Shown here: positions 2,577 to 8,260 of the stretch, piece after piece | Layout: each line of letters opens with the position of its first letter | Numbering within the stretch: the stretch's first letter is position 1 | Virus record (IMG/VR): IMGVR_UViG_3300036852_000068 | Coordinates: 1 to 54,848 of that record | DNA from: a virus | Taxonomy: Duplodnaviria; Caudoviricetes | DNA length: 54,848 bases | Strand: one strand, 5' to 3' | Notes under the pieces: model-generated | Told to the model about the DNA's origin: nothing | Seen by the model: only the letters and a program-made list of their open reading frames with translations | Databases searched by the model: none | Made by a program: the position numbers and the translations under genes

Positions 2577-3670
2577 TGTTCACTGCCACCTCTGCCAATC
2601 TCTCCCGCGCCCTCTCGCTGGTGCTGGCCAGCGCGGAGGTCAAGGGAACCATGCCAGTGCTGGCCTACGTTCTGTTCGAAGCAAAGGACGGCCTGCTCAA
2701 GCTCACTGCTACTGACATTGACTCAACTATTGAAACGCAAATTGAGACGGTAGAGTGCGGTGATGACTTCGCATGGTGCGTGCCGGGTAAGCCGCTTTAT
2801 GATCTAGTCCGCCTGCTCACCGCCGACGTAACCCTGCTGGAGTTCAAAGGCCGTATCGCCGTTAGGTCAGGCGACGCCCAGCACTTGCTCCCGATGCTGC
2901 CTGCTGAGCATTTCCCGGCCATAGAAGCCGCCCAAACGGTCATAGGCGACCTAGACGGCGTCTTGCTCTCTAAAATGCTTTCTACGGCCATGCTGGGCGC
3001 GGAAACCAACCCTAATGGGGTTGATTGGCAGAAGAATGTTGAGGTAATCGGTAAAGACGGTCAATTAACCATTACCGGGTGTTCATCTGCTCAGATTTCC
3101 AGTGTGGCGGCTAAGTTCAATGGCGAGGTTGAGGCGGTAATCCCACAGCGAGCGGCAACGATCCTTGCGGCCTTTGCTGCTGGTAATGAATCCGTTTCTA
3201 TTGCCTGTTCTAACAACCTACTGACCCTGCGATCTGAAACCGGCGCAGCACATTCGCGGTTATCAGCACTAAGGATGGCCGATTGGCGCATGTTGATTCA
3301 GTCCGACTATCAGCACTCTATTGAGCTTAATCCTGAAGCCGCCTTACCCGCCCTCCGTCGTGCTCTGCTAGCATCGGGCAGTGGTGCGGTCAATATCCGG
3401 TTAGGCAACGGGCAGATGGTTGTGACCGCAACTAACGCCGATGATGGCCGGGAGGGAACCGAAGTATCAACAGTCAACGCCCCTACGCTCAACGGCAGCA
3501 CCTATGATCTTCGCTTGCTGGCCGCCCAACTAATCGACTACCTGCGCCTCTGCGACTCCCCGATTCTCTGGCATATCAACGAAGGTAATAGTTCGCTATT
3601 ATTCACCTTGAAAGAGCCAAAGGACTTCGAGTGGCGGTATATTCAGACGACGTTGAGGTTGCAGGGGTGA
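2576..3670 (+). CDS. dnaN: DNA polymerase III beta sliding clamp homologue (divergent)
   Basis: 364 aa. N-terminus 'PVLAYVLFEAKDGLLKLTATDID', 'VPGKPLYDLVRLL' and 'LPAEHFP' match the beta-clamp pattern. Confidence 0.8.
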   Translation: MFTATSANLSRALSLVLASAEVKGTMPVLAYVLFEAKDGLLKLTATDIDSTIETQIETVECGDDFAWCVPGKPLYDLVRLLTADVTLLEFKGRIAVRSGDAQHLLPMLPAEHFPAIEAAQTVIGDLDGVLLSKMLSTAMLGAETNPNGVDWQKNVEVIGKDGQLTITGCSSAQISSVAAKFNGEVEAVIPQRAATILAAFAAGNESVSIACSNNLLTLRSETGAAHSRLSALRMADWRMLIQSDYQHSIELNPEAALPALRRALLASGSGAVNIRLGNGQMVVTATNADDGREGTEVSTVNAPTLNGSTYDLRLLAAQLIDYLRLCDSPILWHINEGNSSLLFTLKEPKDFEWRYIQTTLRLQG

Positions 3671-4404
3671 CGCCATATTACTCAGAAGCGGGGATTGAAA
3701 TCTGGCTGGGTGATTGCCGTGAAATATGGCCGACCTTGGGAGAGATCGATCTAGTCTGTACCGACCCGCCATTTGAAGCTGAGGCTCATACGCCAATGCG
3801 ACGAACCAACAGGAGTATTCAAACAAAAGAAAACGTCGCTATGCCGTTTGCGCCGATTACGGAAGAATTGCGTGGCTGGTTGACTAACATTCAATGTAAC
3901 TGGCTCTTAGCATTCTGCCAAGCCGAAGCCGTTAGTATTTACCAAGTGTCTCTGGGATTAAAATATCGTCGCCCTATGGTCTGGGTTAAGCCTGACTCAG
4001 CACCGCAATTCACCGGGGATCGTCCGGCGATGGGTTATGAGTCTATCGTCTGCGCGTGGATGGCAGAAGGTAAGAGTCGCTGGAACGGTGGCGGGCGGCG
4101 CGGGGTGTTCACGTACAGCGTCAATGGTTACGAACGATGGCATCCAACACAAAAACCGTTACCGCTGATGACGGAACTAATCTCACTGTTCAGCTTGGGC
4201 GGGGTGATATGCGACCCCTTCCTCGGTAGTGGTACCACTCTCCTCGCTGCCAAACAACTGCGCCGCAAGGCTGTAGGGATCGAAATTGAGGAACGTTATT
4301 GTGAAATCGCAGCTAAAAGATTAATGAATTGTCCTGAGCCGTTGGCATATGCGCCGATAGCGCAAGAGAAGGTTGAACCTGTTTCGCTGTTTGCTGCTGA
4401 GTGA
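3667..4404 (+). CDS. Orphan DNA methyltransferase 1 (N6A/N4C, beta class)
   Basis: TDPPF catalytic motif, HPTQKP, DPFLGSGTT SAM-binding motif, GIEIEERY; GTG start overlapping the clamp stop (GTGA). Confidence 0.9.
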   Translation: MTPYYSEAGIEIWLGDCREIWPTLGEIDLVCTDPPFEAEAHTPMRRTNRSIQTKENVAMPFAPITEELRGWLTNIQCNWLLAFCQAEAVSIYQVSLGLKYRRPMVWVKPDSAPQFTGDRPAMGYESIVCAWMAEGKSRWNGGGRRGVFTYSVNGYERWHPTQKPLPLMTELISLFSLGGVICDPFLGSGTTLLAAKQLRRKAVGIEIEERYCEIAAKRLMNCPEPLAYAPIAQEKVEPVSLFAAE

Positions 4405-4411
4405 TCACTGA

Positions 4412-5932
4412 ATGGAACCTTACTACCAAGACGAGTCAATAACGATATTCAGCGCGAGTTGTCTTAATGCGCTTCCGTATCTTGCTGATTGCTCCGTTGA
4501 TTCAGTCGTTACCGATCCGCCTTACGAGTTGGGATTCATGGGTAAGTCTTGGGATCGCTCTGGCATCGCTTACAACGTCGAAGTCTGGAAAGAATGTTTG
4601 CGCGTCTTGAAGCCCGGTGGACATCTTCTCGCCTTCGGAGGATCGCGTACTTACCACCGATTAGCTTGCGCGATTGAAGATGCAGGGTTTGAGATTCGGG
4701 ATCAAATTCAATGGATTTACGGCTCAGGATTTCCCAAAAGTTTAGACGTTAGCAAGGCAATTGACGCGGCAGCGGGCGCAGAACGGGGAGTAATCGGACG
4801 AGCTAAGGGAGCGGCGTCAAGTCAGACGCATAGCCTCGGCGTGTTTGCCCCTTCTTATGACGCGACCGCTCCCGCAACCGAAGAAGCAAAGCAATGGAGC
4901 GGTTGGGGCACAGCATTGAAGCCAAGCCATGAGCCAATAATATGGGCTCGTAAACCCTTGACTCCTGTTCTTATTGAGAGTAAACTAGTAGCAGAAACCC
5001 AGCATTTAATCGGGAGCCTGCTATGCCAATTACTATCAAGTGCGAACAGTGCGGAAGTGATTTTAGCGTCAAGCCCAAGCGTGTCAGGCGAGGCGTCCGC
5101 TTCTGCTCTACTGCTTGCCGCCGTGCTTCGTGGGCCATCGTTAGACGGGTGGTGCGAGCGGATGGCTACGTGCAGCTCACAGGAAACGGTCTCAACCTGC
5201 TTGAGCATCGCGTCGTCATGGAACGACATCTTGGACACGCTCTTGAATCGTGGGAGCAGGTTCACCACCGAAACCATAATCGGTCTGACAACCGCATTAA
5301 AAACCTTGAACTCTTATCTATCGGAGATCATGCCCGCGAGCATCATCCGGGACGCGTCCCTTCCTGTTGGCGAGTTGCTAAATGTAGAGGTTGCGGAAAG
5401 CAATTTGAGCGACGGGCCAAAGAGCTTGAGGCTCACCCAAGAGCATACTGCTCGCGTACTTGCTTCGTTACGTCAGGTGCTCACATCTGCCAACGGTGCG
5501 GAAGCCGGTTTCACGGCGGCGGCTCGCGTCGCAAATTCTGCTCTACGATCTGCTATCACACATCTCGAAGAAAGCCTGCCGCCTGAAACTCGCCCCGCAC
5601 ACGAGCCGATTGTGTTAGCTCGTAAGCCTCTTATCGGAACCGTCGCAGAGAACGTCTTACAGCACGGAACGGGCGGGTTGAATGTTGATGGATGCAGGAT
5701 CGAAACCGTTGACGTGTATTCGTATCCAAACGGCCCCGGCGGTAAATCACACCACTACAGCAGTGACAAACGCAGCGTTGAAGTTCGCCCTAATCCCGCC
5801 GAGAGCAATCCGTTAGGCCGCTGGCCCGCAAACGTGATTCTGTCCTATCCCGAAGATGAATACGAACTTTGCGCAAGTGTGACCGCAGAGCAAAAGAAAG
5901 AACTGTTTCAGTGGCTTTATGAGAACGCCTAA
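4412..5932 (+). CDS. DNA methyltransferase 2, N-terminal piece (contains a 224-aa in-frame insertion overprinting HNH-1)
   Basis: VTDPPYELGFMGKSWD, RVLKPGGHLLAF, WIYGSGFPKS, GWGTALKP, HEPIxxARKPL (twice), GRWPANVIL. Confidence 0.9.
   Translation: MEPYYQDESITIFSASCLNALPYLADCSVDSVVTDPPYELGFMGKSWDRSGIAYNVEVWKECLRVLKPGGHLLAFGGSRTYHRLACAIEDAGFEIRDQIQWIYGSGFPKSLDVSKAIDAAAGAERGVIGRAKGAASSQTHSLGVFAPSYDATAPATEEAKQWSGWGTALKPSHEPIIWARKPLTPVLIESKLVAETQHLIGSLLCQLLSSANSAEVILASSPSVSGEASASALLLAAVLRGPSLDGWCERMATCSSQETVSTCLSIASSWNDILDTLLNRGSRFTTETIIGLTTALKTLNSYLSEIMPASIIRDASLPVGELLNVEVAESNLSDGPKSLRLTQEHTARVLASLRQVLTSANGAEAGFTAAARVANSALRSAITHLEESLPPETRPAHEPIVLARKPLIGTVAENVLQHGTGGLNVDGCRIETVDVYSYPNGPGGKSHHYSSDKRSVEVRPNPAESNPLGRWPANVILSYPEDEYELCASVTAEQKKELFQWLYENA
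4958..4986 (+). promoter_or_regulatory. Internal sigma70-type promoter for HNH-1
   Basis: TTGACT-17 bp-TAAACT inside the insertion, followed by GGGAG RBS and ATG at 5023. Confidence 0.6.
5023..5586 (+). CDS. HNH homing endonuclease 1, overprinted in an alternative frame inside the methyltransferase
   Basis: EHRVVMERHLG..L...EQVHHRNHNRSDNRIKNLEL (HNH_3 type) plus three CxxC...(F/Y)CSxxC zinc-finger repeats; own RBS. Confidence 0.9.
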   Translation: MPITIKCEQCGSDFSVKPKRVRRGVRFCSTACRRASWAIVRRVVRADGYVQLTGNGLNLLEHRVVMERHLGHALESWEQVHHRNHNRSDNRIKNLELLSIGDHAREHHPGRVPSCWRVAKCRGCGKQFERRAKELEAHPRAYCSRTCFVTSGAHICQRCGSRFHGGGSRRKFCSTICYHTSRRKPAA

Positions 5933-6548
5933 TTGCAAATGCTTGGTCTGTGATAAGCCGCTTTATCGCCGTCCGTATGAGTTGGCGAAAGTGAGGCATG
6001 TTGCGTGTATGACGCACAGAGCCGAAGCACAGAAGATTTCAGGTATCACCGAAGCGCAACGAGCGGGGCTATCACGCGGCAGGGTGAAGGGCGATAACCG
6101 CCGGACGGGTTGCAAGCAAAGCGAAGCGATGAAGCAAAAAGTTTCAGAAGCGAACCGAAAGTATTGGGCGTCACACCCTGACGAACTCGCCGCCAGAGGC
6201 GAGCAGATGCGCGGAGAGAATCACTACAAATGGAAAGGCGGCGCGACAAAACTCAACATCGCAATCCGCCAGATGAATGAAAACCGAAAATGGATGGACG
6301 CGGTGAAGGAAAGAGACGGCGGCAAATGCGTTCGCTGCGGTAGTGCCGATCAAGTGGAAAGCCATCACATTATCGAACTCGTGATGCTGATCGAACTTTA
6401 TGAAGTAAAGACGCGAGATGAAGCACGCGGCATCACGGCATTTTGGGATTTAGACAACGGCCAAACACTTTGCCAGCGATGCCACTACGCGCATCACGGG
6501 AGAACCTATCGTGAGGATCGAAGAGAAAACCTACAACTTGCTGCCTAG
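5919..6548 (+). CDS. HNH homing endonuclease 2, splitting the methyltransferase gene
   Basis: NUMOD3-like KQSEAMKQKVSEAN, GENHYKWKGG, RDGGKCVRCG...ESHHI...NGQTLCQRCH. Confidence 0.9.
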   Translation: MRTPNCKCLVCDKPLYRRPYELAKVRHVACMTHRAEAQKISGITEAQRAGLSRGRVKGDNRRTGCKQSEAMKQKVSEANRKYWASHPDELAARGEQMRGENHYKWKGGATKLNIAIRQMNENRKWMDAVKERDGGKCVRCGSADQVESHHIIELVMLIELYEVKTRDEARGITAFWDLDNGQTLCQRCHYAHHGRTYREDRRENLQLAA

Positions 6549-7299
6549 CCATCTGAAAGCCCTGTTTCGGAAGCTGCCGAACCATGGATCGGATGAAGTG
6601 CTGGCGGGGTTTCCTGAGACAGGGATAAGTGCAGGCGGCGGCATGAAAGACTTACAAAAGGGCAAGTTGTTTCAGGGCGAAACTAATCCCAATATCACCA
6701 ACACGTCGGGATTTGGCGATTTCGGTTCTGCAGCCCGTTTCTTCTTTTGCGCGAAAGCCTCTCAAGAAGAACGCAATGCAGGACTCAGTGGCGGCGTTCA
6801 ATTGCTTGACTGTGCTGCGCTAGTTTGCTACCCTTCCCGATCATGGGTATTCGCGGCCCTCAATCAAAGGCTCCTGGAGGATACGGTAGCATTAGCAAAA
6901 AAGGCTACCGCCGAATCTATGATCCAAACGAGCGAAGGTTTCGTATGGAGCATGTGCTTGTGTGGGAGTCCTACAACGGACATATTCCACCCGGCTATCA
7001 AATCCATCATCGAAACGGAAACAAAATTGATAACGAAATTGGAAACTTGGAACTCCTCAGCCCAACCGCACACAAACGGCTGCATGGCGGCTGCGTTTGG
7101 CGTGACGGCCAATGGCGGAAACCTTGCAAGCTATGCGGAATTTCAAAGCCCATTAATGCGTCAAACTGGTATCTCAGCAAAGAAGGATGGCCGCTATATG
7201 GTCGATGCCGACCTTGCCACGTCAATAAAGTCGTGGCTGACAAGCGCGCCCGTAGGAGGCGGGCAAAGGATGGGAGTGCGTAATTCCCATCCTACGTGA
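6511..7299 (+). CDS. DNA methyltransferase 2, middle piece (in-frame insertion overprinting HNH-3)
   Basis: GGGAG RBS and GTG start; HGSDEVLAGFP, GSAARFFFCAKASQEERNAGL ... RNSHPT then TGA. Confidence 0.8.
   Translation: MRIEEKTYNLLPSHLKALFRKLPNHGSDEVLAGFPETGISAGGGMKDLQKGKLFQGETNPNITNTSGFGDFGSAARFFFCAKASQEERNAGLSGGVQLLDCAALVCYPSRSWVFAALNQRLLEDTVALAKKATAESMIQTSEGFVWSMCLCGSPTTDIFHPAIKSIIETETKLITKLETWNSSAQPHTNGCMAAAFGVTANGGNLASYAEFQSPLMRQTGISAKKDGRYMVDADLATSIKSWLTSAPVGGGQRMGVRNSHPT
6806..6834 (+). promoter_or_regulatory. Internal leaderless promoter for HNH-3
   Basis: TTGACT-17 bp-TACCCT with extended -10 TG; ATG 8 nt downstream at 6843. Confidence 0.55.
6843..7283 (+). CDS. HNH homing endonuclease 3, overprinted in an alternative frame
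   Basis: EHVLVWESYNGHIPPGYQIHHRNGNKIDNEIGNLELL plus C-terminal CxxC...CxxC. Confidence 0.9.
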   Translation: MGIRGPQSKAPGGYGSISKKGYRRIYDPNERRFRMEHVLVWESYNGHIPPGYQIHHRNGNKIDNEIGNLELLSPTAHKRLHGGCVWRDGQWRKPCKLCGISKPINASNWYLSKEGWPLYGRCRPCHVNKVVADKRARRRRAKDGSA

Positions 7300-7569
7300 A
7301 CAGTCAAGCCTCTAGCCTTAATGCAATACCTAATCAAACTCATTACTCTACCAAACGGAATAGTGCTCGACCCGTTTGCCGGATCAGGCAGCACGCTTAT
7401 AGCAGCAAAGCAGTTAGGGTATAAAGCTATTGGGATTGAGAAAGAGGAAGAATATTGCGCTATCGCCCAGCATCGGCTGCTAAATCTTCCTGAGCCACTA
7501 ACCTACGATGAGCCGATTAAGCCTGCTAAGCCAGCGCGGATAGTTGAGCAACCGGAGTCGCTATTTTGA
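7300..7569 (+). CDS. DNA methyltransferase 2, C-terminal SAM-binding piece (same frame as 6511..7299, after the TGA)
   Basis: TVKPLALMQYLIKLIT..NGIVLDPFAGSGSTLIAA..GIEKEEEY; no RBS before ATG 7321. Confidence 0.8.
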   Translation, partial: TVKPLALMQYLIKLITLPNGIVLDPFAGSGSTLIAAKQLGYKAIGIEKEEEYCAIAQHRLLNLPEPLTYDEPIKPAKPARIVEQPESLF

Positions 7570-7641
7570 TTACAATCAAAGCCCAATTCTTTTCCGTCAA
7601 CGGCTACCGGCCGCTCGCGCGTATGAAAGGATACAACACCT

Positions 7642-7998
7642 ATGCGACCTATACGCTTGTATGTTTCCGGCCCAATGACCGGCTATCTTGATTTTAACTA
7701 TCCCACATTCGAATCAGCCACCAAGCAGTTACGCGCCGCAGGCTATGAAGTTGTTAGTCCGCATGAGTTGGTAACGGATACTACTCTTGATTGGAAAGAA
7801 TGCATGAAGGTAGATATTCGCGCGCTACTAGATTGTGAAGGCATCGCTACTTTAGAGGGTTGTGAGAAGTCAAAGGGTGCAACACTTGAGAATACGATTG
7901 CCGCCGCAATGGGAATGGAAATTAGGACATTAGCCGACTGGTTGGATAAAGCTATCGAAATACAGCACAAAGCGGCACAGCGGCGAACTGGACTATAG
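7642..7998 (+). CDS. DUF4406-family protein (nucleoside deoxyribosyltransferase-like fold)
   Basis: YVSGPMTG..DFNYPTF...GYEVVSP...CM..DI..LLDC.......EKSKGATLE pattern. Confidence 0.8.
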   Translation: MRPIRLYVSGPMTGYLDFNYPTFESATKQLRAAGYEVVSPHELVTDTTLDWKECMKVDIRALLDCEGIATLEGCEKSKGATLENTIAAAMGMEIRTLADWLDKAIEIQHKAAQRRTGL

Positions 7999-8026
7999 CC
8001 CTAATTAAATTGATTGATTGTTGACG

Positions 8027-8260
8027 CTAAACTAGCTCATCTTCCCACACGGCTATATACGTCAGATTCTTCCTCCACTTCCGCCCTGTTTGCTTTTGCA
8101 CCTTTGCACATAAAAGACAGCGCCGCCGAATAGATAAATCCGCGATATTAACTTCGTCCTGCCCTTTCAACCCCCATTCATCTGTCCCTCGTACCGGCTC
8201 ACTAAATGGAACACGCAGCCACCAGTGTCCAAATAGGAAATGGAGAAACCTCATTGACAC
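8027..8260 (-). CDS. Hypothetical small protein, last gene of the late operon
   Basis: LFGHxW ... CxxC pattern; overlaps upstream gene. Confidence 0.5.
   Translation of the reverse strand: MSMRFLHFLFGHWWLRVPFSEPVRGTDEWGLKGQDEVNIADLSIRRRCLLCAKVQKQTGRKWRKNLTYIAVWEDELV

Follow-up and report, generated by a model that had tools for sequence, protein, structure and literature searches.

A predicted HNH_3 nuclease gene nested in an alternative frame of a phage DNA methylase, with a putative leaderless internal promoter

[quoted passage not shown] It lies on the 54.8-kb IMG/VR viral contig IMGVR_UViG_3300036852_000068, and the window is the whole stretch of DNA analysed, namely positions 1-54,848 of that contig (54,848 nucleotides). 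The invaded host gene is one beta-class N4/N6 methylase (PF01555) that is spread across 4412-7569 as three open reading frames (ORFs), here fragments A, B and C; these fragments, insert 3 with its promoter-like site and HNH-3, and the HNH-2 gene described below are on the + strand. Fragment B (6511-7299, frame 1), which starts at GTG 6511 with GGAG upstream and carries the motifs ...GSAARFFFCAKASQEERNAGL, reads through insert 3 and ends with RNSHPT-TGA. The methylase frame of insert 3 (6787-7278) runs without a stop for exactly 164 codons, from the end of ERNAGL in fragment B (6786) to the start of the R in RNSHPT (7279). HNH-3 (6843-7283) runs from ATG 6843 to TAA 7281-7283 in frame 0, i.e., the -1 frame relative to the methylase, and encodes 146 amino acids (aa). 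Its coding sequence fills 436/492 nucleotides (nt) of the insert, and its TAA coincides with the third base of the R codon of RNSHPT together with bases one and two of the N codon. A first-pass annotation made from the letters of the sequence had described here a 146-aa HNH gene in a methylase frame open for about 164 codons, with a TAA overlapping the R-N codons, and this description holds in all its dimensions.

That the hidden gene encodes an HNH protein is borne out by profile comparison, as HNH-3 matches PF13392 HNH_3 with E 1.9e-14 and 53.4 bits (cut-off 24.8), and also 14 PHROG HNH families (best E 9.8e-15). It keeps 25/25 invariant columns of its family, in which H55, H56, N64, N68, H77, H81 and the Cys pairs are invariant. 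An AlphaFold2 (AF2) model built from 17 sequences has a predicted local distance difference test score (pLDDT) of 88, and its top structural match in the Protein Data Bank (PDB) is I-HmuI (1u3e), with probability 1.00 but a weak E of 1.1e-2 and template-modelling (TM) scores of 0.39/0.33; the HNH-3 family profile found no match among PDB sequences at E ≤0.01. The 164-aa peptide of insert 3 in the methylase frame matched zero Pfam or PHROG families. By these comparisons, insert 3 is a predicted HNH_3 (I-HmuI-like) nuclease gene placed in the variable linker that leads from the target-recognition end (...AKASxxERNxGL(D)) to motif X (HPTVKP) of the methylase.

For the window copy by itself the open methylase frame is only marginal, and it is the relatives that settle the question. 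A scan of viral contigs with the HNH-3 protein gave 13 loci of 42-72% identity, and a search of viral contigs with the methylase-frame ORF 6511-7296 as query found no relative. Nine of these 13 loci have a +1 frame that stays open from one end of the nuclease gene to the other, inside methylase ORFs of 532-711 aa, and the nuclease takes the same position in all nine, between ...ER..GL(D) and HPTVKP. An independent sample consisted of 80 loci chosen by the methylase C-terminus, with the ARFF-to-HPT distance measurable in 74 ORFs; this distance is 18-78 aa in 69/74 and 163-173 aa in the other five, and all five long-linker ORFs hold an HNH-3 homologue in the same relative frame. When the viral loci were combined with 13 genome-contig and 61 metagenome loci and identical proteins were removed, 67 distinct complete homologues remained. 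The +1 (methylase) frame is stop-free in 47 of them, the nested copies, and has 1-6 stops in the other 20, the free-standing copies. Methylase motifs lie upstream in the same ORF in 43/47 nested copies, and motif I lies downstream in the same ORF in 36/47; in four, the window included, the C part follows after a stop or in another frame, and in seven no downstream methylase motif was found. Thirteen nested genes have 0 stops each in the +1 frame against 1.1-7.4 expected from the codon usage of their own contigs, whereas four free-standing relatives have 2-6. Moreover, the read-through peptide was found in 14 metagenomic proteins of 483-900 aa at 47-63% identity, 13 of which carry PF01555.

The two frames have been kept in different ways. 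Averaged over 36 pairs of nested genes, the identity at HNH codon positions 1/2/3 is 0.65/0.72/0.42, and position 3, which is position 2 of the methylase codons, is nearly saturated; therefore, the nuclease experiences purifying selection of the ordinary kind. No conservation of the methylase-frame peptide as such is seen: what is kept is its freedom from stops and its register, and the seemingly conserved strings within it are shadows of the HNH motifs. The HNH frame is thus named the ancestral, selected coding frame, and the methylase reading the secondary one. The first-pass annotation had spoken of an overprinted nuclease and of the same overprinting solution as in insert 1, another hidden HNH insert farther upstream in the methylase; the read-through stands at the level of the family (47/67 stop-free), while the direction of the overprinting has to be inverted.

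Just upstream of the nuclease start lies a promoter-like site (6806-6834), consisting of a -35 TTGACT at 6806-6811, a 17-nt spacer with TG at 6826-6827 that ends TGc, and a -10 TACCCT at 6829-6834, which ends 8 nt before the HNH-3 ATG, with no Shine-Dalgarno sequence; the arrangement TTGACT-17-(TG)TACCCT had been read correctly beforehand. At the homologous position, the relatives have TTGAC(A/G/T), 16-18 nt, TAnnnT and then 6-8 nt to the ATG, and in two loci a perfect promoter consensus stands 6 nt before the ATG. A promoter match of at least 10/12 is present in 20/47 nested vs 0/20 free-standing copies, and a TAnnnT ending 6-8 nt before the ATG in 29/47 vs 1/20, whereas a Shine-Dalgarno-like motif precedes 7/47 nested and 17/20 free-standing copies. 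Among background ORF starts, 8/967 reach 10/12, and five of those eight are themselves nested genes of the HNH-3 family. The -35 usually coincides with the host G-L-D codons, and a complete TTGAC at the GLD codons occurs in 7/10 nested rows vs 3/54 uninvaded rows. In the nested copies a stop in the HNH frame lies 2-10 codons upstream of the ATG, and a methylase-nuclease fusion by -1 frameshifting was therefore rejected. Given the distance from the -10 to the ATG, a leaderless transcript is therefore predicted to start at about 6841-6843. Neither the open frame nor the promoter is significant in the window alone, and both are far beyond chance because they are conserved in the relatives. A leaderless internal promoter, as the first-pass annotation had suggested, is thus supported by comparison as a putative element, with a -35/-10 pair 6-8 nt from the ATG that lacks a Shine-Dalgarno sequence and is specific to nested copies. 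As a separate observation, an unrelated, non-nested 101-aa gene (2147-2449 in loci L035/L038) has a 10/12 promoter match ending 8 nt before its ATG, a geometry that no more than three background ORF starts show, this one included.

At the 3′ junction (7288-7302), the HPT codons are followed by an in-frame TGA at 7297-7299 and then by ACA. This junction, HPT-TGA-T-V-K-P, reads CATCCTACGTGAACAGTCAAGCCT and is six bases longer than the canonical HPTVKP coding sequence. Fragment C (7300-7569; TVKPLALMQYL...DPFAGSGST..., motif X/I) follows in frame with fragment B and matches PF01555 with E 1.3e-18 at profile positions 171-220 of 221. A stop exactly after ...HPT is present in 7/10 fetched read-through relatives, the long N-terminal ORFs of which are otherwise intact, and three run on. 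Such a stop closes the methylase in the subclade of the window, where the AdoMet-binding C-terminal piece is an ORF of its own. In L109, L111/L112 and L114, a 5-nt insert (TTGAC or GTGAC) provides the TGA and, overlapping with it, a TTG or GTG start codon located six bases ahead of VKP, and three small database proteins, from contigs of 4.7-25 kb, start with M or L and then TVKP, or directly at VKP. A 7-nt version of the junction is common to L134 and the cultured phage ShiLan, in which the C piece (gp67) starts at a GTG with GAGGAGG before it. Since the HPT stop recurs in most of the fetched relatives and in ShiLan, the split after HPT is a recurrent, conserved arrangement, which points to split methylases as a usual consequence of invasions of this kind. 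The 6-nt variant of the window retains the stop and shifts the coupled GTG out of frame; therefore, fragment C, in which the earliest start codon is ATG 7321 with no NTG before it and no Shine-Dalgarno sequence, can begin only at that ATG unless the stop is read through. A genetic code with TGA as an amino-acid codon was rejected, as TGA is a genuine stop in the contig and terminates 13/29 ORFs of at least 200 aa. A short ribosomal hop over the TGA (Thr-stop-Thr), which would restore the exact HPTVKP in the window, does not fit the relatives with 5-nt and 7-nt junctions and is kept with a low probability.

The family to which HNH-3 belongs is widespread. Genome-contig relatives come from metagenome-assembled genomes of Planctomycetota, mostly free-standing, and of Pseudomonadota, Bacteroidota and Cloacimonadota, in which they are nested; further relatives occur in soil and other metagenomes. 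In a tblastn search of 50,697 phage records, HNH-3 found 25 records with free-standing partial matches only, none covering 80% of the query, and among the matches listed there was none under a methylase annotation and none from an actinophage or mycobacteriophage. A maximum-likelihood tree built from the 67 proteins by a quick method requires a minimum of 4-5 switches from the nested to the free-standing state or back, and on it the window HNH-3 groups with L003, L004, L109, L111 and L113 (Shimodaira-Hasegawa-like approximate likelihood-ratio test, SH-aLRT, 95). The free-standing homologues that were inspected, 4/4, lie immediately 3′ of a methylase ORF.

Several invaded alleles vary on this arrangement. 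Two or three separate read-through inserts occur within single methylase ORFs of P0004 (891 aa), P0001 (718 aa), L003, L007 and L014, and the last three each house a further HNH gene, unrelated to the first, in the remaining alternative frame (methylase +1); therefore, both alternative frames and several sites are used. In L011 (3400-3700) and L013 (3900-4460), duplicated ARFF(F/Y)TSKA... host segments stand on one or both sides of the insert, which suggests imprecise recombination or co-conversion during invasion, and the promoter-like site of these two loci is degenerate. Invaded alleles often have HSTVKP, not HPTVKP (3′ junctions of L066, L078, L058 and L014). The nuclease TAG of L066, L078 and L058 is composed of the last base of the His codon and the AG of the Ser codon, and the nuclease stop of L005 and L011 is a TAA within the host codons of the HPTVKP motif; thus, the nuclease ORF borrows bases of the host motif for its stop.

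The remaining parts of the host locus are as follows. Fragment A (4412-5932) has the DPPY motif, covers PF01555 profile positions 1-107 and holds insert 1 with the hidden HNH-1. HNH-2 (5919-6548), a free-standing PF01844 HNH gene, separates fragments A and B, which are in different frames, and the methylase frame is closed across it by many stops. Fragment B as a whole ORF had no Pfam match at E ≤0.01, and its flanks are alignable with PF01555 methylases of related loci. Contigs from two soil-metagenome DNA runs, both possible sources of the viral contig, agree with the window over 4300-7700 without joints or variants, and no empty (uninvaded) allele was seen in those two runs. The contigs of the second run (X2) break at window positions 4470 and 6501-6528, i.e., near the methylase start and the boundary of HNH-2 and fragment B, which could reflect variants in that sample or merely low depth. 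Directly upstream of the invaded methylase lies an intact second PF01555 methylase of 257 aa (3631-4404), and given this gene the phage may not depend on the broken one. There is a resemblance between the end of fragment A (...TAEQKKELFQWLYENA) and the beginning of fragment B (...TYNLLPSHLKALFRKLPNHG), and it extends to the N-terminal leader MQISQEQYNKLPERLQKHF... that many small database entries for C-terminal methylase pieces have, and to ShiLan gp65/gp66; these segments may be a recurrent module at split points.

Based on these findings, we propose that insert 3 is probably an intron-less, intein-less homing-endonuclease element nested in the -1 frame of a phage methylase. In such an element, the methylase would be translated straight through as an unstructured loop of ~165 aa and remain usable, while the nuclease would be made from its own leaderless transcript. 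The nuclease could then cut uninvaded methylase alleles near the GLD/HPTVKP coding sequence, and the element would spread by recombinational repair during co-infection. A more far-reaching formulation, which we put forward tentatively and judge to fall a little short of an even case, is that nested HNH-3 represents a self-contained colonisation of a conserved enzyme motif with no splicing machinery, combining a portable leaderless promoter taken partly from the host G-L-D codons, a stop-purged +1 frame and, in one subclade, an NTGA-type stop/start junction after HPT that gives a two-piece methylase. If this were true, such elements would find a nursery in phage methylase genes generally, with as many as three to one ORF.

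A number of points weigh against the proposed nested homing element. The window methylase is interrupted by HNH-2 and by TGA 7297, a break into three ORFs that the first-pass annotation had not mentioned, and read-through may no longer be of consequence in this copy. Taken by itself, its open frame gives P 0.137 on shuffling among its synonymous codons, and P 0.07 on resampling of codons from the contig usage (2.2 stops expected). The window promoter matches only 8/12 of the consensus, with 3/6 in the -10, and 8/12 or better is also reached by 75/967 background ORF starts. In the family, 27/47 nested relatives are below 10/12 and 7/47 have a Shine-Dalgarno-like motif, so that the promoter is not universal or some starts are misassigned; starts were chosen by rule, as the last Met before the KGY motif, and for the background set first ATGs were taken. 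The likeness of the modelled fold to I-HmuI is weak (E 1.1e-2, TM 0.39). In an AF2 model of the invaded L004 methylase the core has pLDDT >90 and the insert, residues 278-429, <50, and this hints only weakly at a floppy loop, because the native middle region beyond the insert is modelled poorly too. Finally, we infer the nuclease activity, the target site and homing itself from knowledge of the family.

Several of these points would suit a window methylase that is already dead, the 164-codon frame being an unselected relic of a recently functional ancestor and only the nuclease being alive. Such decay is unlikely but deserves serious weight, as fragments A and B do not share a frame and stops are numerous across HNH-2, TGA 7297 counts as a real stop, the C piece has neither a start before ATG 7321 nor a Shine-Dalgarno sequence, the open frame of the window alone has P 0.07-0.14, and an intact methylase lies just upstream at 3631-4404. 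However, the stop after HPT is kept in 7/10 fetched relatives with intact long N-terminal ORFs and in ShiLan, and is therefore a designed split, not a lesion; GGAG still precedes GTG 6511 of fragment B, the frames across insert 1 and insert 3 are both still open, and the sequence is identical in the contigs of two runs. The open frame would be irrelevant if the insert were spliced out, either from the RNA as a degenerate group I/II intron or from the protein as an atypical intein. No Rfam match was obtained at E ≤1 over 3500-8200, for which reason the intron reading was dropped, and the ~56 nt 5′ and 0-16 nt 3′ of the insert that lie outside the HNH ORF (<75 nt) are too little for an intron core; an intron would also not require 47 homologues to be stop-free and in register. 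The intein or extra-domain reading was dropped since the methylase-frame peptide has no match in Pfam and PHROGs, in which no Hint domain was found for the methylase frame, and the nuclease itself is in the other frame. The same negative has been published for the ShiLan element (Arsenault, Gosselin & Gogarten, 2025, Genes 16:178; PMC11855218). Splicing is therefore barely credible, even though many phage HNH genes sit in group I introns, intron cores can evade covariance models, and the insert end ...RN followed by S superficially resembles the C-terminal Asn and following Ser of an intein.

The leaderless expression step has its own competitor, in which the nuclease is translated from the methylase mRNA, by internal initiation without a Shine-Dalgarno sequence or by reinitiation, and TTGAC...TAnnnT is nothing other than G-L-D codons or a nuclease binding site. 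It is true that the -35 overlaps conserved methylase codons, that CTTGA is already common in uninvaded alleles, that 27/47 nested copies stay below 10/12 and that the window -10 is weak. Nevertheless, the -10 lies in insert sequence free of protein constraint, yet TAnnnT stands 6-8 nt from the ATG in 29/47 nested vs 1/20 free-standing copies; the wobble base that completes TTGAC is enriched in invaded alleles (7/10 vs 3/54), and the HNH-frame stop 2-10 codons before the ATG excludes a frameshift fusion. We therefore regard expression from the methylase mRNA as rather improbable. Highly improbable, in our estimation, is a further possibility, that nuclease and methylase form a functional pair, of the restriction-modification or addiction-module kind, and not parasite and host. 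Every examined member of the family is indeed tied to a methylase, nested in 47 and immediately 3′ in 4/4 of the free-standing copies inspected, but a place within or next to the target gene is usual for homing endonucleases. Among closely related methylases the element is distributed patchily (5/74 measured ORFs), the tree needs at least 4-5 nested/free switches, three unrelated HNH genes occupy three sites of one methylase in the window, and the closest structure is that of a homing enzyme.

The principle of an HNH gene nested in a phage methylase is already published (PMC11855218), and insert 3 appears to be a new family at a new site. Beyond this literature, three results appear new, namely the purging of stop codons throughout the family, the conservation of a putative promoter at a distance that fits a leaderless mRNA, and that of the stop/start split following HPT; no promoter for such elements was reported in the literature searched. 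The 2025 description, which concerned two actinophage methylases, gave no answer as to the expression of the nuclease and the generality of the arrangement (PMC11855218). The HNH-3 family now offers 47 distinct nested examples from many environments and several bacterial phyla and, as a candidate answer on expression, a conserved promoter for a leaderless mRNA, in contrast to the Shine-Dalgarno-led free-standing relatives; this fits the leaderless proposal made by the ShiLan authors (PMC11855218). The family is also a clean natural case of a frame kept only as 'no stops' across another gene, which is useful for models of overlapping-gene evolution and for gene callers, as these annotate the long methylase ORF only and miss the nuclease.

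Out-of-frame HNH genes in actinophage methylases have been described as the ShiLan domain and the Pacc40 insert, in a paper that finds no splicing signature and speculates on leaderless translation with no promoter shown (PMC11855218). The homologue of the ShiLan domain in the window is insert 1 (4955-5590), while insert 3 lies at another site and the tblastn search with HNH-3 listed no mycobacteriophage match. HNH-1 (5023-5586), hidden in another frame of fragment A, shows 38-41% identity to its hidden counterparts in the mycobacteriophage methylases that were listed, which include ShiLan, Mantra and Filuzino, and 52% to an insert in the methylase of a Cylindrospermopsis phage. With HNH-3 it has only the HNH core in common (49% identity over residues 41-105, E 8e-10). 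The independent invasion and the unlike nuclease architecture that had been supposed in the first-pass annotation are upheld, as HNH-1 is of the ShiLan type and HNH-3 belongs to another family at another site, with no nested counterpart among the matches listed from the 50,697 phage records. The -35 TTGACT that it had noted in both inserts is also present, at 4958 in insert 1; there, 36 nt separate the end of the TTGACT-17-TAAACT site from the ATG, and the arrangement is therefore not a leaderless one. Insert 1 is flanked by a diverged duplicate of host sequence, ...HEPIIWARKPL before and ...HEPIVLARKPL after, and a similar resemblance of flanks is noted in the ShiLan paper (PMC11855218).

The likeness of insert 3 to the ShiLan domain lies in an HNH gene in an alternative frame of a PF01555-type phage methylase, the methylase frame of which is stop-free, with no intron or intein signature, a methylase-frame peptide predicted to be disordered, and a patchy distribution (PMC11855218). 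In addition, the insert closes at its 3′ edge with the HNH stop, which reads TAAC in ShiLan and TAAc or TGAc in L007 and L008, and in ShiLan, too, the methylase is interrupted by a stop immediately behind HPT, its C-terminal part being a separate ORF. However, HNH-3 belongs to another HNH family and occupies the GLD/HPTVKP linker, whereas the ShiLan site is ...EPIxxARKPL; it has 146 aa vs 195 aa, is without the N-terminal zinc finger and starts with ATG, not GTG; and its hosts are not mycobacterial, and a conserved sigma-70-like promoter was found in its family. The hidden HNH of Pacc40 gp60 and the free-standing HNH of Sashimi/Tiff81 parallel the HNH-3 family in that nested and methylase-adjacent forms both occur, although the methylase there is a helicase-methylase and the free-standing copies are upstream, in contrast to downstream in the four HNH-3 cases inspected (PMC11855218). 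No sequence similarity of the Pacc40 system to HNH-3 was detected among the matches listed from the tblastn search of the 50,697 phage records.

With I-HmuI and other phage HNH_3 homing endonucleases, HNH-3 has in common the PF13392 core and the conserved His/Asn/His, and 1u3e is the best structural match of its model. I-HmuI has its gene in a group I intron, which is removed by splicing, whereas no intron was found at insert 3 and the host frame is open through the HNH-3 gene. In Aeromonas phage Aeh1, nrdA is reportedly split by mobE, a homing endonuclease gene that interrupts its host gene without splicing, and the fragments are thought to be functional. This parallels HNH-2 and the HPT-stop junction of the window; the difference is that the host ORF of nrdA is cut in two, whereas at insert 3 the host ORF continues in the other frame through the nuclease gene.

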